DNA of 64,000 nucleotides from Tubulanus polymorphus. Lineage: Eukaryota > Animalia > Nemertea. The position numbers and the translations under genes are program-made. The stretch covers positions 2,476,416-2,540,415 of the forward strand of contig NC_134032.1 of the NCBI RefSeq assembly GCF_964204645.1, read 5' to 3'. Below the pieces are notes generated by a model. That model worked only from the letters and a program-made list of their open reading frames with translations, ran no database searches and was not told where the DNA came from. This document shows positions 6,561-31,619 of this stretch, in pieces. Every line of letters begins with the position of its first letter. Position 1 is the first letter of the stretch.

Positions 6561-6718
6561 GAGTATGTTTCAAATATAAAGTAGTTAAAGCATCGAGAAA
6601 TTAGTTTAATAAATAACTGTTAGGTAGTAAGTTTAATTGTTATTTGATTTGAAACATATAAAACTTATTTCTAAAATATTAAATATTTATCAATTTAATA
6701 ATTTTTTTTCTTAAATAA

Positions 6719-6937: not shown

Positions 6938-6976
6938 AACAGCATCTTTTAATTTCATATATTTTGACTATAAAAA

Positions 6977-7269
6977 TGAGTGAAAATATATTAAACTTAT
7001 TACATCTATATATAAAAATCAACAGAATATTAAATCAATTATTATGCTTACAGGTTTATTTTCATTCTCAGTTCATACTACAAAACAGTTGTTAACAATT
7101 CTATGATTGCTGTAAAATTAGATACACTGAATTAATAGAAAATATAAATTATATTTCAGATAGATAGAATAATATTAAATGCTGTGAAGTATGTAATAAA
7201 AGATATAAAAATTTAAAGAGTTTAAAAACTCATAAATATATTCATGAATTTCTTGTTAAATCTATTTGA
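6977..7269 (+). pseudogene. Disrupted small ORF (MSENILNLLHLY...)
   Basis: Frameshifted homolog of the 42784-42969 ORF MSDNILNLLHLIYRNQEDIKLIIMISGLLS. Confidence 0.55.
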
Positions 7270-7316
7270 ATTCTAGTCAATTCTTGTTAACCAATAGCGT
7301 GACTAGAATTCAAATA

Positions 7317-7530
7317 GAGCGGAGCGGCAGCGAAGCGAAGCGACCAATTGATTTAATACAATATGCTTTTAAAATTTAAATTATTAATATCTTAGAATAA
7401 ATATTTAGTTATAATATAAAATGCACACGGCTATGAAAAAATATTATAGTTTCAAATTACTTTTAATATTTGCTTTTTAATGAGCTCGACCGTTCGACCT
7501 TTGGCCTAGAACAACTAAACCCCTATTACT
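7317..7530. repeat. Right TIR of the small element (outer arm plus apical loop only)
   Basis: Reverse complement of ~4984-5197; preceded by a separate 19-bp-stem hairpin at 7261-7318. Confidence 0.88.
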
Positions 7531-8121: not shown

Positions 8122-8698
8122 AGTAATAGGGGTAATGGGCTTTCAGGCCAAAGGTCGAACGGTCGAGCCCATTAAAAAACAAAATATTAAAAGTAATTAA
8201 AAAACTATAATATATTTTCATAACCGCGTGCATTTTATATCAAAACTAAATATTTATTCTAAGATATCAATAATATAAAAAGCATATTGTATTAAATCAA
8301 TTGGTCGCTCCGCTTCGCCACCGCTCCGCTCCGCGACCAATTGATTTAATTACAATACACAAATTCAAATAATCAAATATATTCAAATGATAATAATTAT
8401 TCTATTATTCAACTGAAATGCACGCGGTTATGAAAATATATTATAGTTTTTTAATTACTTTTAATATATGTTATTAATGAACTCGATCATTAAACCTTTA
8501 GCTTGAAAGCCCATTACCCCTATTACTCTTAAAATATTCATATATATATGAATAACATTTAAATCATTGAACTTCTAAAATCAATTTTAATAAAAAATAT
8601 AGTATTAAAATGGAAGCAAATAAGTACTACTGCCCAACATGTAATATCGATATAGATAAATCCCAAAAAGCAAGACACAATAAAACTAGAACACATTT
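8122..8698. repeat. Left TIR, containing a 406-bp hairpin (8122-8527) and a copy of the first ~26 PolB codons (ATG 8610)
   Basis: Reverse complement of 25923-26488; differences seen are one substitution, a 5-nt indel in the apex and a 7-nt indel at the inner edge. Confidence 0.95.
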
Positions 8699-9744
8699 GT
8701 TTTTAGTCCAGTTGGTTAAAGCAAAGACATTTATCGAATTAAGGAACTCAACACATAGTGAAAAATATGTTGAATCGTTATAAACACCCGATAATACTCA
8801 GCTATATAGTTGGTTGTATTAGCTCCAGTAAACATATGTTACCAGCTTATATTTCAATTGTAAAGAGTTAATTAATTTCATTGATCTAAATGCCTTTATT
8901 ATTGATTTTTTTTCCAACTTCAACGCGTTGTGTATACGGCGAACGTTAGCGAATCACAAATCTCATAATTTACAAGTCTCAACACGCTTGTTCTAGATGT
9001 TTTTACTAGAAAATGATTCTATTTTAACCTATATACATTCAATGTACAGAGCTATAGAATAAATCTATAAATTCACAGCTGTTACAGTTGTTACTATAAC
9101 GACGAGACATTATTACACGTCATAATCAGAAACGTGTAGAATATTCTAGAACCGGAACTAGATGACGTGGCATAATCAACGACGTGTCATTCTAGAAATC
9201 GCCCCGGAAATGGATATACGCTGTAATATTGTGCTCAGGATATTCTATCTTTCGAAACGAAATAAGGAGTTTATAGTTTACAATTATAAATCTAAATGTA
9301 AGTACTGTTTGTTGTAGTTATTAAGGCTATTAAATACGAAACCTTTAAATATATTTAAGTGTATTTAGTATATCTTTTAGATAGTTAGAGTTACCGCTAA
9401 TATCTTTTAGATTAATAAAACGCCATACGCATCAAGAAGTGATAGAGAAACTCAAGATACTCTTTCTGACTGAGGAATCAACAGCAATGGATATCAAATC
9501 AATAGAAATTAGCACAAGAAACACAAGAATCACCAAAAGATCGTCGAAGAAACTATATAAGAATTTCAAAAACATTAAGACTCCAATGATTAAGTTTAAC
9601 ATTTGTTGATGTAGTTAAATATTTACCAGCAATTGAAAAAATGTTTGTAATTATAAATTGTATTTATAGAAATCAAATGATGTATTGGAAGAAACGGCCG
9701 AACAACTTGTATAATGTATTGTGTAAATCTGATTGATGAATTTT

Positions 9745-10084
9745 TATGTTCGGTCGTTTCTATTCAGAATGAATATATAATTATGATTAGCGCATGCGCA
9801 TTAAGCAAAAGCGCTCCTATAAGAGCGGTTTTGCCTAATGCGAACACGTTTAGATATTTTATGTCGGTCGTTTCTATTTACATAATTATATATTCATTAT
9901 GTAAATATAATTATGATTAGCGCATGCGCATTGATCAAAAACGCTCCTATAAGAGCGGTTTTGCCTAGTGCACATGCGTTTGAATTTTCTATGTTCAGTT
10001 GTTTCTATTTCACAGAATGAATATATAATTATGATTAGCGCATGCGCATTAAGCAAAAGCGCTCCTATAAGAGCGGTTTTGCCC
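9745..10084. repeat. Three ~120-bp tandem units, each with GCGCATGCGC and a small stem-loop
   Basis: AATTATGATTAGCGCATGCGCATT..CAAAA(G/A)CGCTCCTATAAGAGCGGTTTT; GCGCATGCGC at 9790, 9920, 10038. Confidence 0.9.
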
Positions 10085-10222
10085 AGTGGTATTATTTAGA
10101 TATCAAGGAATCGAAACAACTTATCAAAAGCAGCGAGGAATGAAAAAGGATGACGTTGATCGAAGAAATGGAAGAGGATTCTAAAATTATTAACCGATTT
10201 AGTAAAAAAATACGTATAATAA

Positions 10223-10888
10223 ATGGAACCAGAACAACCACAAACTATCAATATTACAAATAACACTGGCGTTATAAACATATATTACAAGAAATGTTCT
10301 AAATGTGAATTAGATAAATCATTAACAGAATTTAGTAAGCGTAAGATTAGCAAAGATGGTTTTCAATATTGCTGTAAAACTTGTACTAAACTATATACCA
10401 AACAATATCGAGAAGATAATATAGAACATTATAATTATTATATGACAAAATATATGAGAAAAAGACATCAAACAGATCTTAATTTTAGATTGAAACAATG
10501 CTTAAGGTCTAGATTAACACAATTATTCAACAAAGAAACACATTCAGAAACACTATCTAATTTGTTGGGTTGTTCAGATGAATTTCTCAAATCATGGATT
10601 ATATTTCAATTCGATGATAAAATGAATATAGATAATTATGGGGATTATTACCACATTGATCACGTGTTACCAATATCTAAATTTAACATGAATGATGAAT
10701 ATAATAAAAAACTTATTTGGGGTTGGAAAAATTTAAGACCTTTAGAAAAGAAAGAAAATCAAACCAAATCTAATAAACTAGATTTACAGTTATATTTAGA
10801 ACAGTTAACAAAAGCAAAGAAATTTATTGATCAATGGAATAATAATCCAAATAATGAACAATACGTTGAGTTTTTAATGAGTGGTTAA
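10223..10888 (+). CDS. HNH-family endonuclease of the type seen in large DNA viruses
   Basis: N-terminal KKCSKC..EF..DG..CKTC Zn motif; YHIDHVLP..NLRPL..KENQTKSNK HNH motif. Confidence 0.8.
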   Translation: MEPEQPQTINITNNTGVINIYYKKCSKCELDKSLTEFSKRKISKDGFQYCCKTCTKLYTKQYREDNIEHYNYYMTKYMRKRHQTDLNFRLKQCLRSRLTQLFNKETHSETLSNLLGCSDEFLKSWIIFQFDDKMNIDNYGDYYHIDHVLPISKFNMNDEYNKKLIWGWKNLRPLEKKENQTKSNKLDLQLYLEQLTKAKKFIDQWNNNPNNEQYVEFLMSG

Positions 10889-11113
10889 AGAATAATATAT
10901 CTCAAATAAAATATAATAAAAATTACATACCTTCAACTATCTATTATTTCTATTTTAATTTTTAATATTTTCTTTTCAAAAAAGAATACTTTATATCACA
11001 AATAAAAAATACTAAAAAAACAATAACTAATACTAGAATTCTTAAGCTTTAACTAGCTAGTATCATTTGAAGAATACTTATAATACTATTCTTATTAAAT
11101 TTCTCTAATATAA

Positions 11114-11719
11114 ATGTCTAAGAAATCGAATAAGAATAATATTTAAGTTGAAAAAACTTTGGAAGATTTAGGTCTAACAGATGATAATGATAATGTGGCA
11201 ACTAAATGTGATAATAAAATTGATAACAATATTGATTACGAGTACTATTTATATTGTAAGCATCATCTAGAACTATTGATTGCGAGTGGAAAAACTAAAG
11301 AGTTTATTGGTAAAACAATAACTTTTCAAGAATTAGATAATATGAATAAAGAAAAAGTAATCAAATATTTTAAGATTTATGAAGAGTCAAGGTTAGCTAG
11401 AATAAATGATTCTATTTCAGATGGTATTATCAAATGTTATTCAAAATTATGTAACCAGTTAATACCAATTAATGATGAAAATAAATTATATAATGATTTG
11501 AAAAATGACTATTTAGTTATGACTGAATTACAAAAATGGGTTGGATATGCTTCATTCCAATTAGGATCGGTTATGACATTGATTTCTACTGGAGTTATAA
11601 CATTTTCGAACATCAAACCTATGGAATATAAATCAGGTAAGAACGAAACAGATGTACTACAACAAAACGTCGAAACAGAAAATGAATCAGAACAAAAATT
11701 AACTAAAATAAATGAGTGA
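11114..11719 (+). pseudogene. Conserved Maverick hypothetical protein with a premature stop at 11144-11146
   Basis: TAAATG start at 11114 is in frame with the 11159 ORF; homolog at 31620 reads through this position (VPIEKTLDDLG vs I*VEKTLEDLG). Confidence 0.75.
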
Positions 11720-12074
11720 TGGAGTTAAGAAAAAGGCTAGATCCGAGAAACAAATTAAATGGGCAAGAGAATTAGGTAAAAGATCTTCAGAATTAAAAAA
11801 AGCTAAGAAAAAGAAATTAACCGATATAAATGAATCACCTGGTATTGATTCAAATAATAATCCATCTAATAGATTCAGCACAGCTGAATCTCATAATTAC
11901 TTATATATTACAATTGGGTTAATCACAATTATTATATTCTCCGGTGTAATATATAAATCAAAATTCAAATCTGATGATAAAGATGATTCCAATGATGATA
12001 AACCTATTATACCAGAAAATAAATCAAATCATAAATCAAATGAAAATAAATCTAAAATATTATTAATGGATTAA
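11712..12074 (+). CDS. Basic single-TM protein
   Basis: RSEKQIKWARELGKRS basic N-terminus; YLYITIGLITIIIFSGVIY hydrophobic helix; TAAATG start. Confidence 0.75.
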   Translation: MSDGVKKKARSEKQIKWARELGKRSSELKKAKKKKLTDINESPGIDSNNNPSNRFSTAESHNYLYITIGLITIIIFSGVIYKSKFKSDDKDDSNDDKPIIPENKSNHKSNENKSKILLMD

Positions 12075-12077
12075 AAT

Positions 12078-13166
12078 ATGATGAAAAAAGAACAATATTT
12101 AAGAGATTTATATTATAACCCAGAAAGTGAAGTATCATTTTCCAACGTTTCAGAATTATGGAATAAAATTAAATCTGATAAAGAAAAAATAAAATATAGT
12201 GAATTAAAATCATGGTTACAAAATCAACCCACATATCAAATTCATAAAAAGATGGATAAAAAATATTTAACAAGAAAAGTAATGGTTTCATATATCGATC
12301 AACAATGGCAAGCAGATTTAATTGACATGAAAAACTTAGAAGAATATAACAAAGGATATTTCTGGATACTAAATGTTATAGATATATTCAGTAGATACGC
12401 ATGGAGTATCCCGATTAAAAATAAAACTGGTATAGAAGTAACAAATGCTTTTAAATCTATATTTAAAGAAGCTATTCCAGATAAGATACAATTTGATGAA
12501 GGTAAGGAATTTTATAACAAACATTTTAAAAAACTATTAACTGATAACGATGTAGAATATTTTTCAACACATTCAGATAAAAAAGCATCTGTTATAGAAA
12601 GATTTAATAAAACATTGAAAACTAGAATGTGGAAATATTTCACCGCTAATGAAACATATAAATATATCGATGTGTTAGATGATTTAATGAAAGGTTATAA
12701 TAATTCTAAACATAGTTCTATAAATATGAAACCTATACAAGCTAGAAAAGAAGATAATTCAGAAATAGTTTGGAATAATTTATATGGAGCATTTGTTACA
12801 CATGATTTTGGAGAACCTAAATTTAAAATAGGACAACATGTTAGAATTTCTAAATATAGAAAAACATTTTATAAAGGTTATACCCCTAATTTTACAGAAG
12901 AAATATTTAAAATTAAAAAGATAATATTAACTAAACCATTTGTTTATAAATTGTTTGATTTAAAAGATGAAGAAATATTAGGTTATTTTTATGAACAAGA
13001 ATTATCATTAGTACCAAATCCAGATGATATAGAATACAAAATAGAAAAAGTATTGAAAACAAAAACTCTTAAAGGAAAAAAGTATTCTTTGGTGAAATAT
13101 AAAGGATATGATGATAAATTTAATGAATGGATTTTATCTAGTAAAATTAAAAGAATAAATGAATAA
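12078..13166 (+). CDS. Retroviral-like (rve) integrase with C-terminal chromodomain
   Basis: WQADLID, VIDIFSRYAW, QFDEGKEF, IERFNKTLK (D,D,E); YKIEKVL..VKYKGYDDKFNEWI chromodomain. Confidence 0.96.
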   Translation: MMKKEQYLRDLYYNPESEVSFSNVSELWNKIKSDKEKIKYSELKSWLQNQPTYQIHKKMDKKYLTRKVMVSYIDQQWQADLIDMKNLEEYNKGYFWILNVIDIFSRYAWSIPIKNKTGIEVTNAFKSIFKEAIPDKIQFDEGKEFYNKHFKKLLTDNDVEYFSTHSDKKASVIERFNKTLKTRMWKYFTANETYKYIDVLDDLMKGYNNSKHSSINMKPIQARKEDNSEIVWNNLYGAFVTHDFGEPKFKIGQHVRISKYRKTFYKGYTPNFTEEIFKIKKIILTKPFVYKLFDLKDEEILGYFYEQELSLVPNPDDIEYKIEKVLKTKTLKGKKYSLVKYKGYDDKFNEWILSSKIKRINE

Positions 13167-13773
13167 AGATTTATTTATATTTGAACCACATAATATGTTA
13201 ATAACTGGAGTTACGAATTGTGGTAAAACACACTTCATATTAGATTTATTAGAAACTATTTATAAGAATCATTTTAAAAATATAATATTATTCTGTCCTA
13301 CTTATGAAATGAATGAAACGTATAATAGAGATATAGTTTTTAAAGATAAAAAGTTTATTATATTAAATTCTAAAACAGTGAAAGATAATTTAGATAATTG
13401 TATAAAAATTGCATTAGATATTTATAAAGGATCAAATACATTATTTATTATTGATGATTGCGCAAATTTACATGATTCTAAAATTAGAGAAAGTGAGTTA
13501 TGTTATTTAGCTTTCTCTGGTAGACATTTTGGGATAACAACTTGGGTTTTAAATCAGAAATATAATTCAATTGTGAAAGATTTTAGAGAGAATATAAGAT
13601 TTCTAGTTTTATTTTATAACAAAGATAGAAAATCTATGCAACAATCATTGGAAGAAAATCAAATTATACCTCCTGAATTACATGATGAATATATGAATAA
13701 ATTAAAAAATAATAAAGGTTCCAAATTACTTATGAGATTACAATTTCCATATGAATATAAATTTATAAAATAA
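13159..13773 (+). CDS. A32/FtsK-like DNA packaging ATPase
   Basis: Walker A GVTNCGKT, Walker B FIIDD, GRH motif, LNQ. Confidence 0.93.
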   Translation: MNKDLFIFEPHNMLITGVTNCGKTHFILDLLETIYKNHFKNIILFCPTYEMNETYNRDIVFKDKKFIILNSKTVKDNLDNCIKIALDIYKGSNTLFIIDDCANLHDSKIRESELCYLAFSGRHFGITTWVLNQKYNSIVKDFRENIRFLVLFYNKDRKSMQQSLEENQIIPPELHDEYMNKLKNNKGSKLLMRLQFPYEYKFIK

Positions 13774-13785
13774 AATCCTAATTCA

Positions 13786-14316
13786 AAATATTATAGAATT
13801 CACTGTATATTGATGGATGAGTGGATGAATTGGATGAATCGGATGAATTGGAAGAGTGGATGAATTGGAAGAGTGTAATAATATATAATTTACATATGAT
13901 TTTTATTTTTAAAACAGTAAGAGTTTGATTTGAAGATGTCATATAATAATAAATATATTTTTATAAAATAATAAAATGACAGATAATAAATGTCATATAA
14001 TAATAAATATATATTTATAAAATAATAAATAATAAAATGATAAATAATAAAATGATAAATAATAAATATATTTTTATAAAATAATAAATAATAAAATGAT
14101 AAATAATAAGTGTCATATAATAATAAATATATATTGTGTTAAATTTAATAAAGAATAAAAATATTATATTTATACTCATACTATTCTTCCAATTTATGTG
14201 TTAAAAAGTAAAATATATATATTATCATACTCATCCACTCTTCCACTCACCCAATTCATCCAACTCTTCCAACTCATCCATTCATCCATCAATATACAGT
14301 GAATTCTATAATCTTT
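13786..14316. repeat. Inverted-repeat-bounded AT-rich spacer between convergent gene blocks
   Basis: ATTATAGAATTCACTGTATATTGATGGATGA (13790-13820) and its reverse complement (14282-14312), each followed inward by GGATGAATT/GGAAGAGT arrays; centre has ATAATAAA repeats. Confidence 0.88.
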
Positions 14317-15397
14317 TTAATTTTCATTTTCATATTTTTCTTTAAGCTTATTGTATTCTAAATATATATCCCTTTGCATTATCTTTGATATAAGTCCTAA
14401 ATGATTCCCAAATTTATATTTATTGAATGTTTTTCTTGAAAATATTTTTGGAATATAATTTTCGATTTCAGTTTTAGATGGATGTTTATTTAAAAATTCT
14501 CTAAAATCATCATATTCAAGTTCAAATAAGTTCATTGCATAACTTACATTTGGTTTAAAGTTATCTAACTTTTTCAATATGGTAACTATATCATTACTCA
14601 ATAAATAATGTATAATTGTTTTTCTATACCACCGATAATCTAATATATTATTATTATTAAATTTTGGATTTATAACTGTTGGATCTTCTATTACATTATC
14701 TGTACCAATATGTTTAATTGAGTATTTAATAATAATTTAATTATTTCAATTGTTTATCATATATTACATATTCTTTACATTTTTCACACCAAGATTTAAA
14801 TACTTTTATTGCATGGGCTGAATCATTTCCACTTTTTGTTTTTAATTTATAATGTTTTGCCCAATTAGCCTTTGTTATACATTCATTACAGAAAGCACAA
14901 TAATTCTGATCCTCTTTACATTTATCTTTATATATATTGGCATATGTTTTTACTAATTGTAAAATATGTTCATCTTTTTTGATGTGTAATAAATAATCAT
15001 TGTAATTATCAAAATCTTCTTCACAATACATACATCTGATGTTATCTTTTGGTTGAACATTTGATTTTTCTATTTTAGGTTCAATATTATGTTCTATTTT
15101 TGTTTCAATCTTATCATCATTCGATGTAGAAGGTATAACATTATCTTCTATTTTTGTTTCAATATTATCTTCTATTTTTGTTTCAATATTATCTTCTATT
15201 TTTGTTTCAATATTATCTTCTATTTTTGTTTCAATATTATTATTACGTTCAATTAAATATTCTTTGTATTGATTTAATTCATTTAATAAAAATGTTCCAA
15301 TATATTCATTTATTCTTTTATAAGGTATTACATAATACAAATCATCATTGATTTCTTTATCAGCTTTGATTCTTTCATATACTTTACCTCCTTCCAT
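14317..15397 (-). CDS. Zn-finger protein with IETKIEDN repeats; ORFs 14741-15397 and 14317-14601 are probably one gene broken near 14740
   Basis: CMYCEEDF..HIKKDEH and CAFC..HY C2H2-like motifs; 24-nt tandem repeat; the downstream frame is open from 14736 without its own ATG. Confidence 0.6.
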
Positions 15398-15429
15398 TTA
15401 TTATATATATTTTTATTAAAGTTAAAATT

Positions 15430-16677
15430 CTAATACATAACACTATCTAATTGTGAATTTACAATATTTAATTGCGCGTCAGATATAATATAAATGTGCA
15501 TTTTAAAATTTTTGATTCCCTTTTTCTTTGTCATGAATAATTGTATTCCATCCTTTGTATTTTGTAATTTTTTCCCAGAACCATGTAATGAATTATCTTC
15601 AGTTGTTCTAAAATCTAACCATAATGCAAATTTATTACCGGTATAATAATCAATTTGATTAATGTTACAATTTTCAAATGATTTTATTTTTTCATTCATA
15701 AAATGTTTTCTAATTTCTGGCCATTGATCTATCATTCTCATTCCTTGACAAAATATTTTATTCGCTATACCTTCGATAGTTATTTCTACTTTTGTTATTT
15801 CAGGATTATAATAATTGTCAACATTTATTGCGCCATTAGTATACGTTCCAATAGTAAAAAATATTAATATACCTTTAATAGATCTTCTAGGAAAGTTAAT
15901 ATTCTCATTTATTATTTCATCATTTGCATTAATAGTTACAGTTTTAAATTTATCAATATAATCATATAATAATGAAAATCCTTGATTGTATTTAGTTTGA
16001 ATTATACTTGAAATATTTTCATCAGTTACTGTATCATATTCTAAACATATATTCGATAATTTATAACTCATATCTTTATTAACGCTAGATAATACAATTT
16101 CATTTACAGGAGCAAATGTTATCTCAAATATAATATCTTCTTGAATTGCGTATTTATATAAAGGTGCATTATTATTTATCAATTCAATGTCTAATGGAAT
16201 TTTATATTTGCTTCCATATATACTTTTTATCAATTTATCTACATCATTTGTTAATATTGCGCTATTAGCTTCTGATCTTAATTTATTTTGGTTTTCTGAT
16301 TGGATGCCTTGAAATATCATATTATTTCTATTTTCTTTAGTTAACCATAAATCTTTATAATGCATAAATAAATTATAATCATCTAATGAGAAAACTGTTT
16401 GTGGACCAATCTTTATTGTTAACTTTTTAATCAAATATCTTCCAACATTATCAACAACATAATTATTATTATTACCGATTACTTTTATATCAGCTGATAA
16501 ATAAATACTGTTTGGAACGTAAAAAGTATTTTGTGTTAATCTAGGAATTCTAACGTATAAAGTTTCATCGGGATTAATATTTGAAGGGTTATGAGTAATT
16601 ATATGATGTGATCTTTCTGCTTTAATAGCATTAGATATTCTATGATTCTTCGAAGGACTTATATAACTCCCACTCAT
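15430..16677 (-). CDS. Probable major capsid protein (double jelly roll)
   Basis: Intact 415 aa, beta-rich pattern (LYVRIP, YLSADIKV, IKKLTIKIG, YKLSNICLEYD, ININFP..IKGILIFF, ITKVEITIEG, FALWLDF); size and context fit a Polinton MCP. Confidence 0.72.
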   Translation of the reverse strand: MSGSYISPSKNHRISNAIKAERSHHIITHNPSNINPDETLYVRIPRLTQNTFYVPNSIYLSADIKVIGNNNNYVVDNVGRYLIKKLTIKIGPQTVFSLDDYNLFMHYKDLWLTKENRNNMIFQGIQSENQNKLRSEANSAILTNDVDKLIKSIYGSKYKIPLDIELINNNAPLYKYAIQEDIIFEITFAPVNEIVLSSVNKDMSYKLSNICLEYDTVTDENISSIIQTKYNQGFSLLYDYIDKFKTVTINANDEIINENINFPRRSIKGILIFFTIGTYTNGAINVDNYYNPEITKVEITIEGIANKIFCQGMRMIDQWPEIRKHFMNEKIKSFENCNINQIDYYTGNKFALWLDFRTTEDNSLHGSGKKLQNTKDGIQLFMTKKKGIKNFKMHIYIISDAQLNIVNSQLDSVMY

Positions 16678-16748
16678 TTATTTAACAAAAAAATTAATTA
16701 TTTATTTTTTGATATCATGGTTTACTTGATATTTTTTGATATCATGGT

Positions 16749-18440
16749 TTACTTGATATTTTTTGATATCATATTTACTAAACCAAAAATAATAGCACTT
16801 ACAACTGTAATTAAAAATAAAATAATATGTTCAGCAGCAAAGTTAATAATGTTTCCTGCAGATTTCAATATAAAACCAACAATTGAAGCAATAACTCCTG
16901 GTAAAGCTGCAGCAGATTTTTTAGATAGTTCCCATAAATATTTTGCTAATTTCTTTAAACCATCTTTAACTTTATCTTGTATAGAATTATTACCTGGGGG
17001 TTTATCCGGTTTATTTGGAGTAGGAGTAGATTTCAAAGCATTTGATATTGCTAAACCAATTGTTGTAAATAACATAGTTACAGCTGTTACAATTGAAAGA
17101 ATTGTTATTCCTTTTAACTTAAATAATAACTTTATTCTGTCTTTTAATGATATTTCAGAATCTGGTTTAATCAACAAATCTTTAAAAATAACTTTTAATT
17201 TTTTAATATGATTAAGATCATATGATTTTAATAATATATCTCTTTCTTCTTTTTGTAATTTTATGTTATATTCTAAATCATCTATTTCTTTTACTAAAGC
17301 TAACTTTCTGCTTTCAAAATCAGCTTCATAAACTACTTGATGATTTCTATTTAATTCTAATTGTTTTAATTCTTCATCTACATTAACTAATTCTTTTTCT
17401 AACATGGTTATTTTAGAAAATCTCATCTTAATATTAGCAATTTCATCAGCTGATACTTGTATACCTTTAATTTCTCTACGTATTTGTTCAGGAAATGCTT
17501 CTAATTTTTCATCGGTTAAATTAAGAAATCCTTTTTCTAGTAAATATTGCAGTCGATTTATTCCAGTTTCAGAACCAGATGTATCTGATATACTATTCAT
17601 CAGTTCTTCTGAATCTCTTAATCTATCAATTTGTTTTTCTAATTGTAATTTACTTGAATCATTATCAATTTGTTGAGTGTCTCTTCTCGATGTTTCGGGT
17701 GTTGAAGATCTCAATCTATCTAATCTATCTCTATTGTCTTCCATTTCTGGATCAAAATCAGTAGGATTTGGATTTTTAAATGGTGAATATTTGTTTATAT
17801 CAATTTTAGGAATTGGTTCTTCTTCATTTACTCTATCGAGTGCATTCCATATAATTCTGAGAAATTCTCTACCACCTTTTGAATTTTCAATTGTAGATGT
17901 TGCTCGCATTTCAGGTTCAAAAATATTTTCTTGACCCATTTTAGATAATTGAATTGTTACAATATTCCTATTTAAATCAAGATTATAATACCATGCATCA
18001 TTTTTAAATTCTAAATTATTTGTGAAATATGGGTCATCTTTAAAAATTTGTTCTACAACATCTTCAGTATCAATTTCATCTATTACAACTGATGGTAATA
18101 ATTCGTTAACAATTGTATCTGTTACTCTAGATTTCATTTTGAATAATTTCATAGGTTTATCAGGATATTTTTCTTGTTCTTTTACTAATAGTTTCATAAA
18201 TTCTTTTCTTTCTCTTCTAGTTGTAATTCTACCCCTTTCAGGAGCTTCTAAATATTTATTTATTTTTTCACGTAATTCGGGATCATCATCATCATCATCT
18301 TCACCTAAATTAGTATTATATGCTGATTCATCATCATTATCAATATTAGCACCTGCATCATTATAATCATCATCAATATATCCTTCATTATTATTTCCCA
18401 TTTCTCCCATTTCATAATCTTCTCCACCTTCTACATCCAT
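16749..18440 (-). CDS. Large protein with acidic N-terminus, coiled coil and C-terminal hydrophobic/amphipathic helices
   Basis: Intact 563 aa; GITILSIVTAVTMLFTTIGLAI, LPGVIASIVGFIL, IILFLITVVSAIIFGLV. Confidence 0.85.
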   Translation of the reverse strand: MDVEGGEDYEMGEMGNNNEGYIDDDYNDAGANIDNDDESAYNTNLGEDDDDDDPELREKINKYLEAPERGRITTRRERKEFMKLLVKEQEKYPDKPMKLFKMKSRVTDTIVNELLPSVVIDEIDTEDVVEQIFKDDPYFTNNLEFKNDAWYYNLDLNRNIVTIQLSKMGQENIFEPEMRATSTIENSKGGREFLRIIWNALDRVNEEEPIPKIDINKYSPFKNPNPTDFDPEMEDNRDRLDRLRSSTPETSRRDTQQIDNDSSKLQLEKQIDRLRDSEELMNSISDTSGSETGINRLQYLLEKGFLNLTDEKLEAFPEQIRREIKGIQVSADEIANIKMRFSKITMLEKELVNVDEELKQLELNRNHQVVYEADFESRKLALVKEIDDLEYNIKLQKEERDILLKSYDLNHIKKLKVIFKDLLIKPDSEISLKDRIKLLFKLKGITILSIVTAVTMLFTTIGLAISNALKSTPTPNKPDKPPGNNSIQDKVKDGLKKLAKYLWELSKKSAAALPGVIASIVGFILKSAGNIINFAAEHIILFLITVVSAIIFGLVNMISKNIK

Positions 18441-18456
18441 TTACATAATAAAAAAA

Positions 18457-19845
18457 TTAAAATTTAAAATATAATATTCCTCCGATTACAATTCCTATAC
18501 AAGTTATAACTAATTTAGTATTTTCATGGGATTTATTATCATCATTTAGTTTAATTATATCATGTTGAATTTTATCAGTTTTTATATTTTCTGATGTATT
18601 GTAATCTTTTATTTTAGAATCATTATCCAATTTAATATTCTTAGTTTTAGTTTCTGTTGATTGAATGTGTTTTTTATTTTTTTCACCTTCCATTAATTTT
18701 GGAGCAGTAATAATCTTTTTATTTATATCATTTAATCCAAATGAATTATTTATTGTTGCAGTTTTAATTAGATTATTATAACCAATTATGTTTCCCATCT
18801 TTAATACTAAATCATTAGAAATAATTAATAGATTAGGGCCTATACAATAATTAAGTCTTACATGAGATTTATCTAAATAATTTTGATATCTTATAATGTT
18901 TTCTGGAATCGATCTATTTTTATCATTATGTATGGAATCTTCAAATAAAACTTTAAATTGTTTTTGTGTATCGAATGATGTATTCAAATTTCCAATTATC
19001 GGTGATCTTGTTTCAACTTGTGATCCTAGAATACAAATCAAATAAGTTCTAATAGATTGATTTATTCTTTCTATACCTGATTTAGTAAAACCTTCACTAT
19101 TTTCTAAAATAAAATAAACCCAACCATTATTGTTTTCTTGTTTTAAATTATCATAAAATTTTGGTAATTTATTGAAATTTAATGTTTCTAAATCCTTTGT
19201 TTCTATTTTACCATAACCTAATTTATTATTATAGATATTATAAAAACTATTAGATGTTATGGGAAGTGCACAATATTCTGCAATCTTTTTAGGGCAAGGA
19301 AGTGATCTTAATGTTCCAATTTTTGTTCTAAAATCAGAATTATTTATATCTATATTAAATTCATTGCAAATTTTATAAAACTTAGATAAATTAATATTAT
19401 TATCTAATTCTTTAAAATATCTAGATCCTGGTAAAGCACACTCTAATTCATTTAATATTATTCTGATTTGAAAGTATGTATGAAATCTAAATAAACTTTG
19501 AATTAGTTTATATTTAGAATTATTCAAATGATCATTCCAACTAATTCCACATCCTGTTGTTGCACAATAAACAGCAAAATTTAATTGGTTCTGCCAATAC
19601 TTCATATTAGATTTTAATAACCATTGTTTTTCATCTTTCAATTTTTTAAAATTAATTAAATATACATGAAATATATTTTCCATCTTTGCATTAAAATTAT
19701 TAGTTTCAGTAACATAAATTTCTAAATTAGTTAATGAATCTAAAACTTCATTTCTATATGTAATATCTTTATTAAAATCTATTGCTGGAATATTATATTT
19801 AATTAATTTATTATATCGGAAAGCTTTTGGAAAACTATCTACCAT
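18457..19845 (-). CDS. Hypothetical protein with C-terminal TM anchor
   Basis: Intact 462 aa; WQNQLNFAVYCATTGCGIS; ends LVITCIGIVIGGILYFKF. Confidence 0.85.
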   Translation of the reverse strand: MVDSFPKAFRYNKLIKYNIPAIDFNKDITYRNEVLDSLTNLEIYVTETNNFNAKMENIFHVYLINFKKLKDEKQWLLKSNMKYWQNQLNFAVYCATTGCGISWNDHLNNSKYKLIQSLFRFHTYFQIRIILNELECALPGSRYFKELDNNINLSKFYKICNEFNIDINNSDFRTKIGTLRSLPCPKKIAEYCALPITSNSFYNIYNNKLGYGKIETKDLETLNFNKLPKFYDNLKQENNNGWVYFILENSEGFTKSGIERINQSIRTYLICILGSQVETRSPIIGNLNTSFDTQKQFKVLFEDSIHNDKNRSIPENIIRYQNYLDKSHVRLNYCIGPNLLIISNDLVLKMGNIIGYNNLIKTATINNSFGLNDINKKIITAPKLMEGEKNKKHIQSTETKTKNIKLDNDSKIKDYNTSENIKTDKIQHDIIKLNDDNKSHENTKLVITCIGIVIGGILYFKF

Positions 19846-19861
19846 TTATATAACTAAAAAA

Positions 19862-20296
19862 TTAATAATTTGTTAATTCTTTTAATAATTTATCTTGTTC
19901 TTCAACTGTTATATGACCATTTAAACTTATTATATAATCTAGTGTGTTCTTTAATTTATTAATTTCTTTTATATTAGTTTTGATTTTTTCTTTATTACTT
20001 TTTATATTTAATTTTGAACTTATACCAGTTAAAACACTTGAACTTAATCCTAATACACCAATTGATATAGCTAAAGGTGTTAATGGACTGAATATTGCTA
20101 GAAATGTTATTACAGAACTAATTGTAACCGAACCACTTATAATCAAATAATATATAATTTTACTTTTTAAATATTTTTTCTTTTTTATCTTTAAGTCACT
20201 TTCAAATTCTAATATTTGTTTTTCTAAATATGTTTTTAATTTAGTTTTATTTATATCATGAGGAATAATATCAATACTATCAACTTTATCTTCCAT
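19862..20296 (-). CDS. Two-TM hairpin protein
   Basis: 144 aa; two hydrophobic segments between helical charged regions; TAAATG start. Confidence 0.8.
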   Translation of the reverse strand: MEDKVDSIDIIPHDINKTKLKTYLEKQILEFESDLKIKKKKYLKSKIIYYLIISGSVTISSVITFLAIFSPLTPLAISIGVLGLSSSVLTGISSKLNIKSNKEKIKTNIKEINKLKNTLDYIISLNGHITVEEQDKLLKELTNY

Positions 20297-20315
20297 TTAT
20301 TTAGAATAAAAATTA

Positions 20316-20738
20316 CTAATTAGTAAACTTATAAGCAACAAATATAACAATAACAGTTCCGCCTAAAATCCAAATTATTTCATATTTCTGTTGTTCTTTA
20401 CTTGGGGTATAATAATCTGATAATTTGGGTTTGTATAGATGTAATTTTTCTTTATTTGTTACTGTGTTATATAAACTCATTGCATCATCAACTGATTGAA
20501 AATCTCTATGTGAAATCTTCTGATTATATAATTCTTTATTGATGTAATCCATATAGTTTTGTCTCTTTTCTCTATATTCTTCTGCAGCTTTATTGTATTT
20601 CTCTAACGCTAAGTTATGTCTTCTTTGTTCTCCTAATGAACTATTTTTATCAATATGTTTAAATAAATAACCACCACCAGTAAATGCTAAAGCGTTAACA
20701 ATTGCCGATCCTATAATAGTTATAATTGCAGAAGCCAT
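20316..20738 (-). CDS. Small protein with N- and C-terminal hydrophobic helices
   Basis: MASAIITIIGSAIVNALAFTGGGYLF..IIWILGGTVIVIFVAY; TAAATG start. Confidence 0.82.
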   Translation of the reverse strand: MASAIITIIGSAIVNALAFTGGGYLFKHIDKNSSLGEQRRHNLALEKYNKAAEEYREKRQNYMDYINKELYNQKISHRDFQSVDDAMSLYNTVTNKEKLHLYKPKLSDYYTPSKEQQKYEIIWILGGTVIVIFVAYKFTN

Positions 20739-20762
20739 TTATTTAGCAAAAAAATTATGCAT

Positions 20763-20984
20763 TTATATGGGAGGAATATATTTTTGTTTTTCCAAATAAT
20801 CAATAGTTAAATTAGATAAAGTAACTGCTAATGTTAACTTTAAAATATCATTTATATCAAATCTATCAACATTAACACTTCCCATTTTGAATACTTTTTT
20901 TAATACCATTGAATAACCAACAGTTCCAACTGATAGTAATGCGCCATTATATAATCCAGTTATTATCCACTTATTATCACTCAT
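20763..20984 (-). CDS. Small hydrophobic protein
   Basis: 73 aa, tightly packed between neighbours, T7-GATAAA-TAAATG start. Confidence 0.75.
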   Translation of the reverse strand: MSDNKWIITGLYNGALLSVGTVGYSMVLKKVFKMGSVNVDRFDINDILKLTLAVTLSNLTIDYLEKQKYIPPI

Positions 20985-21620
20985 TTATTTATCAAAAAAA
21001 TTACTATCATCAACATATTTAGTTATCTTAGTGATGATTATTTGAACATTTATTTCATTACTAGTTTTATGATTATCATATATTTTGGATAATATGTTTT
21101 TAATATCACCAATAATTCCATCTTCATTTAATTCATAATATTCTAAAGGTGATTTAATTAAATCAATTACTTTTTCTATATTATACTTTTCTTTATCAAT
21201 CATTGATGCATTGTTAAATGATTTACTTTTTATATCAGTAATTACATCATTTAGTTTAATTCTCATTTCTTTACCATGTTTAAAATCAAACCCAAAACAT
21301 ATACTCGGTCCAACAGTTGCACCCATTTTCAACCGAGCTCTTCTATTAATTTCTTGAGCTAATGTTTCTAAATTATATAATCCTGGTTTAAGATAAAGAT
21401 GAAACCATTTACTTTTATTTCTATCATGAATTAAAAAGACTCTATGTTCAATAGACTTATCTGATACATTGTAAAAAGAATTACATAAACTTATATTTAC
21501 TAATTTTAAATCAACACAATTTTTGAATTCTCTGTCTAATTGTACTAGTAAATTATGTGATTTATAATTTGTAAGTTTTCTAGAATCTACAAATATTCTG
21601 TATTCTTTTAATTCCGCCAT
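20985..21620 (-). CDS. Possible minor capsid (penton-like) protein
   Basis: N-terminal IFVDSR..VQLDREFKNCVDLKLVNISLCNSFYNV and LKPGLYN resemble single-jelly-roll minor capsid N-termini; short for a penton. Confidence 0.5.
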   Translation of the reverse strand: MAELKEYRIFVDSRKLTNYKSHNLLVQLDREFKNCVDLKLVNISLCNSFYNVSDKSIEHRVFLIHDRNKSKWFHLYLKPGLYNLETLAQEINRRARLKMGATVGPSICFGFDFKHGKEMRIKLNDVITDIKSKSFNNASMIDKEKYNIEKVIDLIKSPLEYYELNEDGIIGDIKNILSKIYDNHKTSNEINVQIIITKITKYVDDSNFFDK

Positions 21621-21637
21621 TTATTTTACATATTTTC

Positions 21638-21979
21638 TCATTCGAAATCTATTTCATGGTGCCCTTTTTCATTCTTACCTTTGTATACGAAATAGAAATC
21701 TCCAGAACATAATTCTTCTAGATCTTCACTTGATAATCTATGAAATCTATCTGGTAAATAAGTTCTGAATTTATATTTATTTCCTTTTAATCCTTCATAT
21801 TCTAAATGAATTACTAATTTATCTCCATATTTATTAGTAATTGTTTCAATGTTAGTAATTAAATATTTCTTGTGAATTGTTTACTCAGTTAGTTTTTTAA
21901 ATTTATAATCTACAGATTTGACGCTTGAAGTATCTTTAATCCTATCTAAGAATTCACTGTGTACTTGTTTACTCTCCAT
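21638..21979 (-). pseudogene. Small conserved Maverick protein (possibly OB-fold/SSB-like), one in-frame stop
   Basis: MESKQ..FKKLTE*TIHKKYLITNIETITNKYGDKLVIHL..TYLPDRF..YKGKNEKGHHEIDFE; TAAATG start; homolog at ~32395-32660. Confidence 0.65.
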
Positions 21980-22007
21980 TTATTATACACATTTTTATTG
22001 AAATTGA

Positions 22008-25000
22008 TTAACACGCTAGAATCCTTTTCATAATCTCATTTTCTTTTGTTTCTTCTCTTTTGAATTTTATATATTCATCTAAATTGCAACCATAGGCGAC
22101 TGTGTGGATTCCATCATCTAAAATATATCTTTTATCATCAAATGGGTTTAGACTTATCTTCTCTATCTCTTCAATATACATTTCATGATCTTCAGATCTT
22201 AAACATTTCATCTTATGTTTTCTAACTTCTTCATTAAATATACAATTGATGTAATCTTTAAAATGAATATTATTTTCTACTACACTTTTGGTTATTCCTT
22301 TTAACTTTTTAGCTTCATGTTCTTTAGTTTTATAACTATACATTTTAGATCTAATACCAATGAACTCTATCATTTCTTCACCGCCTAATTCATCCTTAAA
22401 CTTCCCAGGAACTTTTTTATTATCATTGATAAACAATTCATGATCTTTAGGATAGTTACTGAAATCAAAATGATGATTTAATATTTTTAAATCACCAGTT
22501 ATGTTATCACTTTTTATCTTTAATATGTAAGAATCTGTATCTAGATATAAGATTTCTATATTTTTTTTCCCCAAAATGGGGTTGCAATACATTATAATAG
22601 AATTCATACATCAATAGCTTTGAAATTTCTAAAACTGCAGCTCCAACATAAATAGGTTTATTGAACTTCATAGAAGTTCCTTTTAATTTAACTGCTGCTA
22701 AATTTTCATCGAATATTCTATTACCTATAAATTTCGGATACGATTGTAAATGTCTAATTCTTTTACCATTACTAACTAACTCAATATCATTTCTATTTCT
22801 TATGTTTTCACATGTTTTTCCATAGAACGCATTATTCATTAGTTTAAAGTAATCTTTTTCAAAATCAGTTTTAGCTTCAGTTCTCTGTGTAGTATTAAAA
22901 TCTATAAATTTTTCTAACCACTTAGATTGATTAAATGAAATATATCTATGTACTTTTTTTAATATCATTCCTTGATTCAAATAAAACTTCAACATTCTAT
23001 AATGTACTACATAATTATATTTATCTTCTTGAGTTACCATTAACTTTTCAGTATGAATATGATTATCGGGTTTAATTCTTTTTTGATAATTTGATAATTC
23101 TTCATGTTTAACAATTTTATGTTCGGGACAATATGCTAGATTTCTAGATTTGAATTTAATATTTTCGGGGTATTCTAAATCTACAACAAAGAAGTAACCA
23201 GTATCTGAATCATCTGCAATATCTAGGATTCTTTTCTTCCAATCAAATTTATCAATTTGTAAAACTTCAGTTATTTCAAACATCCCATAAGGTTGTGGTT
23301 CTATCATTGCCCAACCATAAAGATTATTTGCATCTATGTATAATAATTTATATCCAGGATTATCATTTACATTGAAATATCTATCACCCAATACACCTGA
23401 AACACCTCCTCTTATAGATTTTTCAAATAATAGTAATTGATCTATATTTGTTAACAAATCCATTTTTATATCTGTAAATTTTAATCCACAATCCCATGTT
23501 AATCCTGGTGATGAATAACAATGACAAGGATCAATATTGAAATATTTTAGGTTTACATCTCTAAACCTTTCAAATATATCGGTTAATAATAATACATCTG
23601 ATTTTAAATATAAATCTACTAATTGTCCATGATTTTTAATTTCAAAATGATTCCAAATATTCAATGTTCTATTATATACTTCATCTTTAACATATTCATT
23701 TTTTAATTCATCATAGAATTGTTCTTTCAATAATTCAGTTATTTTAAAATCATTATGATTTTTTAGAAAGAATATGGAATTGCGCCTTTACATCTCATTA
23801 ATTTTAAATCATCATAATTTGGGTAATATTCTTTTAATATCTTTAATTCATCATCAACTAATGATTTTGATAAGTTATCTAATGAACTATTTAAAAATCT
23901 ATATGAATCTATAAATCTTAGACAACCAAATTGGAATGATATATAATTCTCAGATGTTTTAGCTAACATTCTAAATTTATAAGTTGGTATTTTATCTTTT
24001 GATTTATTTGAATTTAATATTTCTATTTCATTATTAATTTCTTCTATTTTATGAAACAGTTGCTTAATGAATAAATGCGCGTCATACCCCGATAAATTGT
24101 GAAATATAATGGGGACAAAATTTACTTTTTTGGCTTGTAAATTGCAAGCCTCATGCGCTGCACCTCTAAATTTACCATTCAAATGATCGTGGTCTCTTAC
24201 TTTTTTATCTTTATAATTAAATATCTTTTCACAATAATAACATTTATCTGCAAACTCAAATTCTTCTTTATCTTCTTCTGTCATAATTATTTCTTTATTT
24301 GTATTCAATAATTTACTAAATCTTATTTCATATTCAATTAATAAGTCACAAAAATGATTGATAACATTTTCATTTCTATAATTATAATATTCACTTTCAA
24401 TTAGTTCTGGATAATCAGATTTTATATATAACCCGAAAGCTGCAGCTGATTGATGAATCTTTTTAATAGTATTTGTTTTTGGTGGTTCATCTGAATAATC
24501 ACTTTCATTAGAATTTAATTTCTTTCTTTTATAATATATATCTTTTCTATCTTTATCTGTTAATTCTTTATTCAATGATTCAAAATCTCCATATATTACA
24601 AATGGTACTTTATTTTTGTAATCATATTTTTTGAATTCTAATATTTTATCTTTTTCATTTGGTAAAACTAATTTACAATAATCATGATTATCACATAGTT
24701 GTTTATGATTTAATAATGTACTTTCATTACTGAATCTATGTAAACATTTTCTACATAGATATATTTTATGGTGATCATTTTCTGATTTGAAAAATAAATC
24801 GATTTGTTTAATCCACATATAATGATTTTCATAATATAGTATATCTATAACATCATTTGAATCATAATCTTTTGATAGGTATAAAGGTTCTAATGTATAA
24901 TGTTTAATATTATTTCCTTTTGTATTTGGTAATTTAATTAAATCAAATACATTTATTTTAAGATTATTATCTCTTTCTATTTTTGGAATATTTTTAATTC

Positions 25001-26005
25001 TAACAGGATACTTATCTATCTTATAATTATTTTCAAATTGTTTATAATGAGTTAATCTATAAGTATGTTTATTATAATCTTCAACTGGATGTAAACAACT
25101 TATTATAGCCCATATAAAACATTTATTATCAAAATTTTGTATATTTATTACACCATTAGTTTTAAATGGTAGTTTAATATAACTTGTTCCATTTATACTA
25201 TCATCTTTATAATATGATAAATTATTTTCATCAATTGGTTTTGATTTAGTTAACTTATTATATTTTGTGTTATAAACATGTAAAGTTATAAATATTATCT
25301 CATCAAATATTAAACCAGATCCTTCAAAATATTTCTCTTCTATTTTAGTTTTTATTTCATTATAACATTTATTTAATTTATCATCTATATGTTGTTTATA
25401 TTATATATTGGTTTATCTTCTGATTTTATAAACTTTACTTTAGAAGATATACTTATTTTAGGATATTCAACATCTGTAATTATTTTTATTATTTCTTTCA
25501 TATTTTCTAAATGTTTTTTATTTTCTTCTAATGTTTTTCCTTTATGAAATTTAAACTCGATAGCTGCTGGACCAATATCACTTTTAAATGCTTCGGTTAT
25601 CTCTATATCTTTTTTATTATCTAATGAATTAATATAATTTCTTACATCTTCCATGTATGGTCTTTTATTGTTTAATTTATTTTTTATTCTTTTAATTGTC
25701 TTCTGTTTCTTATCGTTATCATTATCAAAATAATCTTCACCTAAAATATCATTATTCTTATTTCTAATATGACTTATAGATTTTAAATGTTCTTTATAAT
25801 ATCTTTTATCACTGAATGATTGATTACATGTATCACATTTGTATGTTTCTTTTTCATTCTTTAATTCTTCTAATTTAGTTTCTAATATATCATCCTTATA
25901 TTCTAGTTTCAATTTATTCTCTAAATGTGTTTTATTGTGTCTTGCTTTTTGGGATTTATCTATATCGATATTACATGTTGGGCAGTAGTACTTATTTGCT
26001 TCCAT
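22008..26005 (-). pseudogene. Protein-primed DNA polymerase B with Zn fingers, vOTU-like domain and endonuclease VII insert; frame breaks near 25385, 23760 and 22560
   Basis: NKCFIWAI..HYMWIK, YGDFES, RDHDHLNGKFRGAAHEACN, FHNLSGYDAH, YIDANNLYG, KLMNNAFYGK, YLDTDS, SKMYSY. Confidence 0.95.
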
Positions 26006-26488
26006 TTTAATACTATATTTTTTATTAAAATTGATTTTAGAAGTTCAATGATTTAAATGTTATTCATATATATATGAATATTTTAAGAGTAATAGGGGTA
26101 ATGGGCTTTCAAGCTAAAGGTTTAATGATCGAGTTCATTAATAACATATATTAAAAGTAATTAAAAAACTATAATATATTTTCATAACCGCGTGCATTTC
26201 AGTTGAATAATAGAATAATTATTATCATTTGAATATATTTGATTATTTGAATTTGTGTATTGTAATTAAATCAATTGGTCGCGGAGCGGTGGCGAAGCGG
26301 AGCGACCAATTGATTTAATACAATATGCTTTTTATATTATTGATATCTTAGAATAAATATTTAGTTTTGATATAAAATGCACGCGGTTATGAAAATATAT
26401 TATAGTTTTTTAATTACTTTTAATATTTTGTTTTTTAATGGGCTCGACTGTTCGACCTTTGGCCTGAAAGCCCATTACCCCTATTACT
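25923..26488. repeat. Right TIR with a 401-bp hairpin (26088-26488)
   Basis: 26088 AGTAATAGGGGTAATGGGCTTTCA pairs with TGAAAGCCCATTACCCCTATTACT ending 26488. Confidence 0.95.
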
Positions 26489-28385: not shown

Positions 28386-29639
28386 AAAGCTTGATTATTG
28401 TATACATGTACTGTAGGTTTTCATGTTGTATGAATATTTTGCAGTTCAAATGGGCATGATGCTGATTCCAATGTACAATAAACACATGAAGTTAAATGGT
28501 CAAGGACAGTCAACACCAAGATATCTCTCTTCGACCGATGTTGCACCATACAAGATCCGACTCTTACAACTCGAGGAAAGTGATTCAACACGATCGATAT
28601 AACACTGGAATAGGTTTGCAGTTCATTTCATTTAGTCCTTTATCCTTTTAGCCAATTTGGATTTTATTGTAATTGAAACTCTGGAACTGTTAACAAGAGA
28701 CAAGTAAGAAGTTGAAAAAACACAAGTTATGCTTGATTCTGATATTCAAATTAAATTCAAATTCAAATTTATTTTATTATATCATATTTACAAAACATAT
28801 CATTGGTTCATACAGTAATAAACATTAGGACAGAACGAATATTATTATAGAATTTACAAAAAGCAATGAATTTCTATAACTAAACATTTCTGAACATTAT
28901 TTGTCTAACTGAGATCAAGAGTAACTCTCCCGTTTATTAGGAAACACACGCAACTAGTGGAATATGTTTGATCTACACACATAAATTGTTTATCGCTATA
29001 GAATTTGTAATCCATAAACGCCAAAATCAACATCAGCCGGAAACCCAGACCAAATCAATTCATAATTTATTGATTGAATCTACACTACAATATATGTATT
29101 TATTCAAATATTTCAATAAAAAGATTAACTTCTAAAATCCATTCCAAATAATAATACGTTCTTATTTGTAAATTCACTCAATCTATCGACTCAGTAGGTG
29201 CCTAAGTTGAGTTCTTAATAGGACAGATCCATTTTAAGCATGGTGATAATACAGTATCATGATGTTTGAATGCCAAAATAAATGCCTGGTCAAATAAATT
29301 CATATTTCTTGATTGTACGTCCGCGTATGTTCGGTTTCAAAGCTGAATCATATTTGACGTCTACACAGTGGTTGCATATTAGGTTCGAATCTGTCAATGC
29401 ATTTAATTCTATGTATCGGTATTTCAATTTACTACAATTCCCATCATTCTGAATGGCTTTTCAGAAAACCCGTCATCGCTGCTTAGCAGCTATATTTAAA
29501 CTTTAATTCTGTAATATTATTCACTTGAAAACGAAAACGTGCAGTTTTAATCAAATTATTTTCTTTTGATCTAAAATTTTTAATTGTAGATTATTTTTCT
29601 AATTCATGTTAATCGATATCTTTGAAATGTAGCATCTGT

Positions 29640-31590: not shown

Positions 31591-31619
31591 ACAACACAAC
31601 TAATTTGTTTGTTATATAA

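Follow-up and report, generated by a model that had tools for sequence, protein, structure and literature searches.

A poxvirus-type TAAATG start signal on the genes of an integrated Polinton, a putative satellite of a poxvirus-like virus

Organization of the element

The stretch of DNA considered here, 64,000 nucleotides of contig NC_134032.1 (referred to throughout as the window), contains an integrated Polinton or Polinton-like virus (PLV) of 18.4 kb, most of whose genes begin with the hexanucleotide TAAATG. This start signal resembles the promoters that poxviruses use after DNA replication, and the element is probably best understood as a satellite of a poxvirus-like virus. Its assignment to the Polintons agrees with its terminal inverted repeats with AG...CT ends, the 6-bp target duplication that flanks it (AAGAGG at 8116-8121 and 26489-26494), its rve integrase and, by homology, its family B DNA polymerase (PolB). 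The features of the element, with positions counted from the first nucleotide of the window, are as follows.

8122..26488, no strand: integrated Polinton or PLV, 18.4 kb, with AG...CT ends, inverted repeats and 6-bp duplication
8122..8686, plus strand: left terminal inverted repeat, 98.9% identical to the right repeat across 565 nt; contains a copy of the start region of PolB
10205..10888, plus strand: A-run and TAAATG start with an endonuclease VII/HNH-like gene, 10223-10888 (phrog_1035, E 2e-18)
11096..11719, plus strand: TAAATG start at 11114 and gene for a conserved helical protein, with an in-frame stop at codon 11
11694..12074, plus strand: TAAATG start and 120-aa gene, 11712-12074, with a hydrophobic stretch
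12078..13166, plus strand: rve integrase with chromodomain, start TAAAATATG (PF00665, E 2.5e-9; PF00385, E 8e-5)
13141..13773, plus strand: A-run and TAAATG start with the A32 packaging ATPase gene, 13159-13773 (PF04665, E 1e-13)
14741..15415, minus strand: 218-aa zinc-finger-like gene (weak match, E 0.035), A-run and TAAATG start at 15397
15430..16695, minus strand: 415-aa double-jelly-roll capsid gene (AlphaFold and Foldseek), T7-N6-TAAATG start at 16677
16749..18458, minus strand: 563-aa gene of coiled-coil/membrane type, no Pfam family, T7-N6-TAAATG start at 18440
18457..19863, minus strand: 462-aa conserved gene, T6-N7-TAAATG start at 19845
19862..20314, minus strand: 144-aa two-helix membrane gene (weak SLATT match, PF18142, E 0.003, under the cut-off), T5-N8-TAAATG start at 20296
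20316..20756, minus strand: 140-aa conserved gene, T7-N6-TAAATG start at 20738
20763..21002, minus strand: 73-aa conserved gene, T7-N6-TAAATG start at 20984, the T-run lying within upstream coding sequence
20985..21638, minus strand: 211-aa gene (DUF5901, E 0.005, under the cut-off), A-run and TAAATG start at 21620
21638..21997, minus strand: frameshifted gene, A-run and TAAATG start at 21979; resembles, by eye, the open reading frame (ORF) L001:125-469 of a close relative
22008..26005, minus strand: PolB with an endonuclease VII domain (PF02945; homology), in four frameshifted pieces
25929..26488, minus strand: right terminal inverted repeat, carrying the PolB start (A-run, TAAAATG) at 26005

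The 415-aa protein is modelled by AlphaFold as a double jelly roll (predicted local distance difference test, pLDDT, 85.5), and Foldseek matched this model to the capsid proteins of PBCV-1 (Paramecium bursaria chlorella virus 1), iridovirus and mavirus with E 1e-17 to 1e-11; the mavirus major capsid protein (MCP) ranks below those of PBCV-1 and iridovirus. A minor capsid protein is possibly encoded by the 211-aa gene (20985-21620). Homologues of PolB reach 84% identity and some have PF03175; the pieces in the window themselves gave no match to PF03175 in Pfam, and a polymerase of the protein-primed type is suggested through the relatives. With PolB broken, together with two other genes (a stop in the gene at 11114, frameshifts in PolB and in the gene at 21979), this copy of the Polinton should be unable to replicate unaided. 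Searches of Pfam with the 24 main ORFs of the window (E<=0.1), its 52 short ORFs (E<=0.02) and 34 ORFs from close relatives (E<=0.005, excluding three short doubtful ORFs and those for capsid, ATPase and integrase) returned no cysteine protease, RNA polymerase subunit, TBP or TFIIB. As the Polinton has no recognizable RNA polymerase, an enzyme of either the host or a helper must read its genes.

The terminal 406 nt of the left repeat are predicted to fold into a long branched hairpin, in which base 1 pairs with base 406 (-116 kcal/mol, z -18). Hairpins of this length lie at 8122-8527, 26083-26488 and 4984-5391, and they recall the ends of parvoviruses; flip and flop forms were looked for, and 4/4 ends share one orientation. 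Three 104-nt repeats with palindromic cores (9761-10112) are found upstream of the HNH gene, and an insert with inverted repeats (13772-14330) separates the two convergent blocks of genes.

Shape and distribution of the start signal

The initial annotation placed TAAATG at twelve starts of the element and at the broken gene at 21979, and each of them reads exactly so in the sequence. The same is true of the six T-runs and spacers that it reported (16677, 18440, 19845, 20296, 20738 and 20984), of the T8-CTTAAA ahead of the gene at 6719 in a smaller neighbouring element, and of the deviating starts of the integrase (TAAAATATG) and PolB (TAAAATG). Its heading assigns the motif to the structural genes, to which it is not restricted. 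At 10223, 15397, 21979 and PolB, and at 5916 in the smaller element, an A-run replaces the T-run. Enrichment over background was found: 11 of 19 ORFs called blind to the motif start in TAAATG, compared to 51 of 493 background ORFs taken from their first ATG (10%; binomial p=5e-7), and the proportion becomes 12/14 (p=1e-10) with the gene list of the annotation itself. Of the eight motif-less ORFs, six restart inside broken genes or are likely spurious, and two are the integrase and PolB. Counting from the T of TAAAT, as is done for positions -9 to -30 below, T occupies -9 in 11/11 called TAAATG genes of the window.

When the window was pooled with 11 related loci, 60 of 76 motif-blind ORFs were found to start in TAAATG. 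T is present at -9 in 55 of these 60 starts as opposed to 45 of 124 TAAATG that are not starts (p=1e-13), at -10 in 46/60 and 44/124, respectively, and a run of five T in 28/60 and 4/124; because most of this control is coding DNA, and the T/A contrasts are thereby inflated, the position-specific peak weighs more than the p-values. A stands at -15 in 47/60 starts, neither G nor C occurs across -15..-9 in 48/60, and no comparable peak was seen at -30 to -16 of the 60. The common pattern is an A-run turning into a T-run whose T at -9 is fixed. Five real starts deviate (three integrases, PolB and one g462), and these still have TAAA 1-3 nt ahead of the ATG. Genes of the capsid module lean toward T (23/29) and those of the ATPase and three accessory families toward A (2/14 T-rich), in classes whose families were grouped after the data had been seen and between which the HNH and 21979 families switch.

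The distribution of the signal was followed with an MCP alignment in the 80 best among 376 confirmed stretches of metagenome; 400 of their ORFs were labelled by homology to genes of the window, and those whose 5' end looked intact (364) were retained. Among the 11 loci with an MCP identity of at least 49.5%, TAA precedes the ATG in 31 of 34 homologous genes, or in 31 of 40 if L010 and L079 (44-48%) are included, the cut having been set after these two proved to be motif-less. The value for the other 69 loci is 12/317, from a set dominated by fragments and by the copies of one data set, and it is 3/81 following length filtering and the removal of near-duplicates. Base composition is ruled out as the cause, since ten AT-rich negative loci (26-39% GC) gave 0/31, and the motif-bearing L004 (36% GC) and L005 (44% GC) gave 6/6. 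Fifteen further loci, being 14 PolB relatives from IMG/VR and one MCP relative from contamination in GTDB, gave 5/143. A quick MCP tree distributes the loci that bear the motif over three starred subgroups and a further long branch, with no single resolved clade, and the 11 loci represent about 4-5 independent lineages. MCP scans revealed no relative in viral contigs or phage records and one distant locus in genome contigs, and the clam Mactra antiquata has one annotated, motif-negative homologue.

A different motif was found in a TAAATG-negative sister group (L019, L023, L032, L036, L037, L052, L053 and related loci), which was defined by the tree with seven loci added by hand. There, [AT]TTGAA occurs at 23 of 45 starts compared to 2.0 in shuffles, mostly 22-31 nt upstream of the ATG and often forming the palindrome TTTCAATTGAAA in the gap that separates MCP from its head-to-head neighbour; it resembles the early motifs of giant viruses.

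Several observations concern individual relatives. The MCP P0046, which is 53% identical and labelled Bartonella sp., groups with the motif-bearing L004 and L005; it is probably host-animal DNA inside a bacterial assembly. The close relative L001 encodes a deoxynucleoside kinase at 10340-10981 (PF01712, E 2e-31) with a T-run TAAATG start, and some PolB homologues (among P0149; P0144, P0199, P0226) have intein-type domains (PF14890) or a kinase fusion. The protein family of the gene at 11114 occurs in motif-negative relatives too. A model of one member (L009:6613-7251) is all-helical and found no match in BFVD at E<=0.001 with Foldseek; its non-significant matches include two A11-like membrane-assembly proteins of entomopoxviruses (E 0.15 and 0.81) and these, together with the several small membrane proteins, hint at a particle that may contain a membrane.

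Gene packing in an AT-rich genome could also generate TAAATG, be it through an upstream stop, an overlapping AATAAA poly(A) signal, a T-run terminator or translational coupling. Consistent with this, AATAAATG is found at 29/60 starts and 23/124 controls, several T-runs sit close after an upstream stop, and the start at 20984 is a true stop-start, the sole case in which the TAA is the upstream stop. For every other start, stop-start coupling, which the initial annotation had itself raised as a possible refutation, is excluded. Head-to-head genes, several of which are separated by spacers of 19-30 nt with TAAATG at both ends, have the motif in 14/16 cases, and tandem genes with a gap of at least 4 nt have it in 28/37. 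Moreover, the T-runs are fixed relative to the downstream ATG, with gaps to the upstream stop of 0-71 nt in the six window genes, and the triplet preceding the ATG is TAA in 60 of the 76 ORFs but never TAG or TGA (0/76), even though TAG and TGA end 20/71 genes. Finally, the AT-rich relatives noted above carry the same genes without the motif. Packing or coupling is largely refuted by the head-to-head counts, the absence of TAG and TGA and these AT-rich relatives, and we consider it very improbable.

Candidate readers of the signal

Late promoters of vaccinia virus are described in passages of PMC11980589 and PMC5294985 as having a TAAAT(G) that overlaps the start codon and a conserved T at the 10th nucleotide upstream, amid other Ts and beyond a 5-7-bp spacer; the same passages describe intermediate promoters as A-preferring, with a TAAA that is not always followed by TG. 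TAAATG is retained in a fish poxvirus (PMC4542343), and the late motifs given elsewhere are TATA for African swine fever virus (ASFV), TCTA for Cafeteria roenbergensis virus (CroV) and TAATTAAA for ascovirus, with that of mimivirus also being unlike TAAATG (passages of PMC5294985 and PMC7163114). Slippage at initiation adds a 5' poly(A) leader to poxvirus late transcripts (passages of PMC6211774 and PMC7163114). The signal of the Polinton is like the vaccinia late promoter in its TAAAT(G) at the start codon, its T-rich core upstream, its T near -10 and its A-preferring variants; it differs in having its T peak at -9, where the review gives the 10th nucleotide. Judged by its sequence, the start signal is lineage-specific and promoter-like, and it matches the post-replicative promoter of poxviruses in both the initiator and the upstream T.

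In mavirus-type elements, a late promoter shared with a large virus is accepted as the sign that a helper is used (passages of PMC8547959). The explanation that we favour, with a confidence somewhat above even, is that the Polinton is likewise a satellite, or virophage-like parasite, of a poxvirus-like cytoplasmic virus, and that the TAAATG signal would serve as a promoter for the RNA polymerase of this helper. A satellite that lacks a packaged polymerase could use only the post-replicative machinery of a poxvirus, and such access fits with the TAAA-type starts on PolB, integrase and capsid genes alike. From promoter activity onward, we infer each step of the following mechanism. The DNA of the Polinton would reach the cytoplasmic factory of the helper, where transcription would start inside the AAA of TAAAT; the polymerase would slip on these residues to add a 5' poly(A) leader, and the T at -3 would thereby be removed from the mRNA. 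The Polinton's own PolB would copy its DNA, which the A32 ATPase would then pack into the jelly-roll capsid, and copies would be returned to host chromosomes by the integrase. Tentatively, the T-run starts of the capsid module may correspond to late promoters and the A-run starts of the ATPase, PolB and accessory genes to intermediate ones.

Alternatively, TAAATG could be part of an element-specific core promoter that host RNA polymerase II reads in the nucleus, perhaps aided by a factor that the element encodes. The Polinton does integrate into host DNA, its family exists as many diverged copies, and several of its genes have no known function. However, with the initiator fused to the ATG, there is no leader left to scan, and a start farther upstream would place a T at -3. 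The base at -3 is T in 63/76 of the pooled starts, whereas it is A or G in 86% of the 81 starts of motif-negative relatives; a purine at this position is the Kozak rule of animals. An element-encoded factor is likewise not apparent, with no match to TBP or TFIIB in the ORFs of the window or the relatives, and with the all-helical 11114 family having no significant match and being present in motif-negative relatives too. Transcription by RNA polymerase II is hence regarded as distinctly unlikely.

The helper might also be some other cytoplasmic agent with a TAAA initiator, such as unsampled Pokkesviricetes (e.g., egoviruses), a different giant virus, or a linear plasmid that encodes a polymerase of its own. 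Poxviruses are not alone in using such a signal, given that the linear plasmids of yeast use TAAAN initiators with slippage and poly(A) leaders (passages of PMC6211774). Egovirus-like genes are present in marine sediments and egoviruses have donated genes to Polintons (10.1101/2024.03.23.586382, in passages that make no mention of promoters), and the [AT]TTGAA of the sister group implies that helper-type motifs may vary by lineage. Pfam identified no pox-specific gene in the Polinton or its relatives, Pox_A32 being the ordinary ATPase of Polintons. Nevertheless, the whole pattern, in which TAAATG is fused with the start codon and a T lies upstream at a fixed distance, is described only for poxviruses in the passages of literature examined, and a helper of this other kind is a serious but unlikely candidate.

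Weighing against a poxvirus-like helper, in addition to this lack of pox-specific genes, the use of TAAA by yeast plasmids, the place of the T peak and the limits given above on the control, the T/A classes, the identity cut, the tree and the number of lineages, are the following. No helper-virus gene was found in the window or in the relatives' ORFs searched. Tests on the coding strands lent no independent support to transcription in the cytoplasm. AATAAA is not clearly depleted there (observed/expected 1.12 in the window, 0.88-0.95 in relatives and 0.86 in an AT-rich outgroup, the codon-shuffle version of this test being a weaker null), and the counts of AATAAA and of splice donors inside ORFs do not separate motif-bearing from motif-free elements. 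A depletion of TTTTTNT (0.31) is matched by that of T5 and A6, which represents a general avoidance of homopolymers. Nor does this reading account for how a nuclear provirus would arrive at a cytoplasmic factory.

Polintons of animals may be autonomous nuclear viruses, transposons or satellites of large DNA viruses. A pox-type promoter that is fixed in one lineage but missing from its cousins predicts what class of helper to expect. If this is correct, virophage-type parasitism, and possibly inducible antiviral defence, would extend from protists to the germ lines of animals, and unsampled relatives of poxviruses would be indicated. A much broader proposal, put forward as a conjecture that we incline to doubt, is that a widespread lineage of Polintons in animals, run by a two-step programme of intermediate and late pox promoters, parasitizes a still undiscovered group of invertebrate poxviruses in the manner of virophages, that the motif of each lineage (TAAATG, WTTGAA) names its helper family, and that host genomes thus record large DNA viruses that are yet to be isolated.

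Neighbouring copies and known systems

Two relatives of the Polinton lie beside it in the window.

4984..7530, no strand: 2.5-kb non-autonomous derivative with ends related to those of the Polinton and its own 6-bp duplication, AATATG
29600..32700, no strand: decayed, diverged relative with an ATPase remnant at 30734-31304 and TAAATG starts at 31620 (plus strand) and 29731 (minus strand)

The genes of the derivative, at 5916 (A-run, TAAAAATG) and 6719 (T8-N6-TAAATG), were not found in the large element, and a search for homologues of the former gave four weak matches confined to its last 40 residues. The derivative also contains four 91-nt repeats (5513-5909), its right end is half a hairpin only (7317-7530), and both it and the 18.4-kb Polinton appear to be inserted in one decayed retroelement (GIY-YIG at 4740-5033). 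PolB fragments of an unrelated, GC-richer Polinton (PF03175) are present at 1886-3646, and the flanks of the window carry genes for a rhodopsin-family seven-transmembrane receptor, F5/8-type C and GIY-YIG proteins. From these flanking genes the host is taken to be probably an animal, although a search with a flanking seven-transmembrane receptor gave no homologue at E<=0.001.

In contigs from three runs of one organism, all bins of the element were covered tens to thousands-fold deeper than the flank bin, at identities of 85 to >99%. The Polinton family is present as many diverged copies, and this summed depth does not equal copy number. In a further run presumed to be of RNA, pieces of 21-35 nt covered 2 of 30 bins, which is no evidence on expression. 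The element-to-flank depth ratio in run X1 was approximately 10x that in X2 and X3 (window positions 15300-26900), which could reflect assembly behaviour or extra-chromosomal copies. Contig joints (20282-20735 and 21973-26004) link gene start to gene start, omitting the 140-aa gene or PolB, respectively, as if copies recombine at the common start motif.

With Polintons/Mavericks (Polintoviricetes) and animal PLVs, the element shares terminal inverted repeats, a 6-bp duplication, an rve integrase with chromodomain, PolB, the A32 ATPase and a double-jelly-roll capsid. It differs in its fixed pox-type start signal, which is missing from the other Polinton and PLV loci examined, in its 406-nt terminal hairpins and in the lack of a detected cysteine protease; that of the adenovirus type known from Polinton/Maverick group 1 had no match in the 24 and 52 ORFs of the window or the 34 of its relatives. 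A maturation protease is among the core genes of virophages proper (Maveriviricetes), and none was matched in the 24 and 52 window ORFs. Of the initial proposal of a virophage with a pox-like helper, what stands is the promoter-like signal of pox type, from which the helper itself is inferred, while membership in the virophage class does not stand; "virophage" would be apt only for the way of life. Judged on titles, abstracts and counts of terms, no paper linking Polintons to a TAAAT or late-promoter motif was found in a literature search that lay outside subscription journals and bioRxiv supplements, and promoters are unmentioned in passages from PMC11161782 and PMC11131425 and from two 2026 preprints.

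Mavirus and the endogenous mavirus-like elements of Cafeteria, as presented in passages of PMC8547959, also integrate, have PolB and rve but no RNA polymerase, and carry on their genes the late-promoter motif of a large virus; as here, different types of element bear different motifs. The Polinton differs from them in its host, which is probably an animal, in having a pox-type motif instead of the TCTA of CroV, in lacking a detected protease, and in that its helper, and its dependence on one, are putative. The precedent that the initial annotation pointed to, of PLVs associated with entomopoxviruses, does exist: AHEV_PLV1/2 and CBEV_PLV1 are small jelly-roll DNA viruses that have been proposed as hyperparasites of poxviruses (passages of Barth et al., 2024, PMC11296320). 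These PLVs are of ~12 kb, with a protease and without rve, and the Polinton is the opposite in both genes; it is not a member of this described group. The suggested parasitism of poxviruses is thus common to both, with the evidence being the promoter for the Polinton and, for the entomopoxvirus PLVs, co-occurrence in occlusion bodies and gene exchange, the passages of Barth et al. (2024) containing no promoter analysis.

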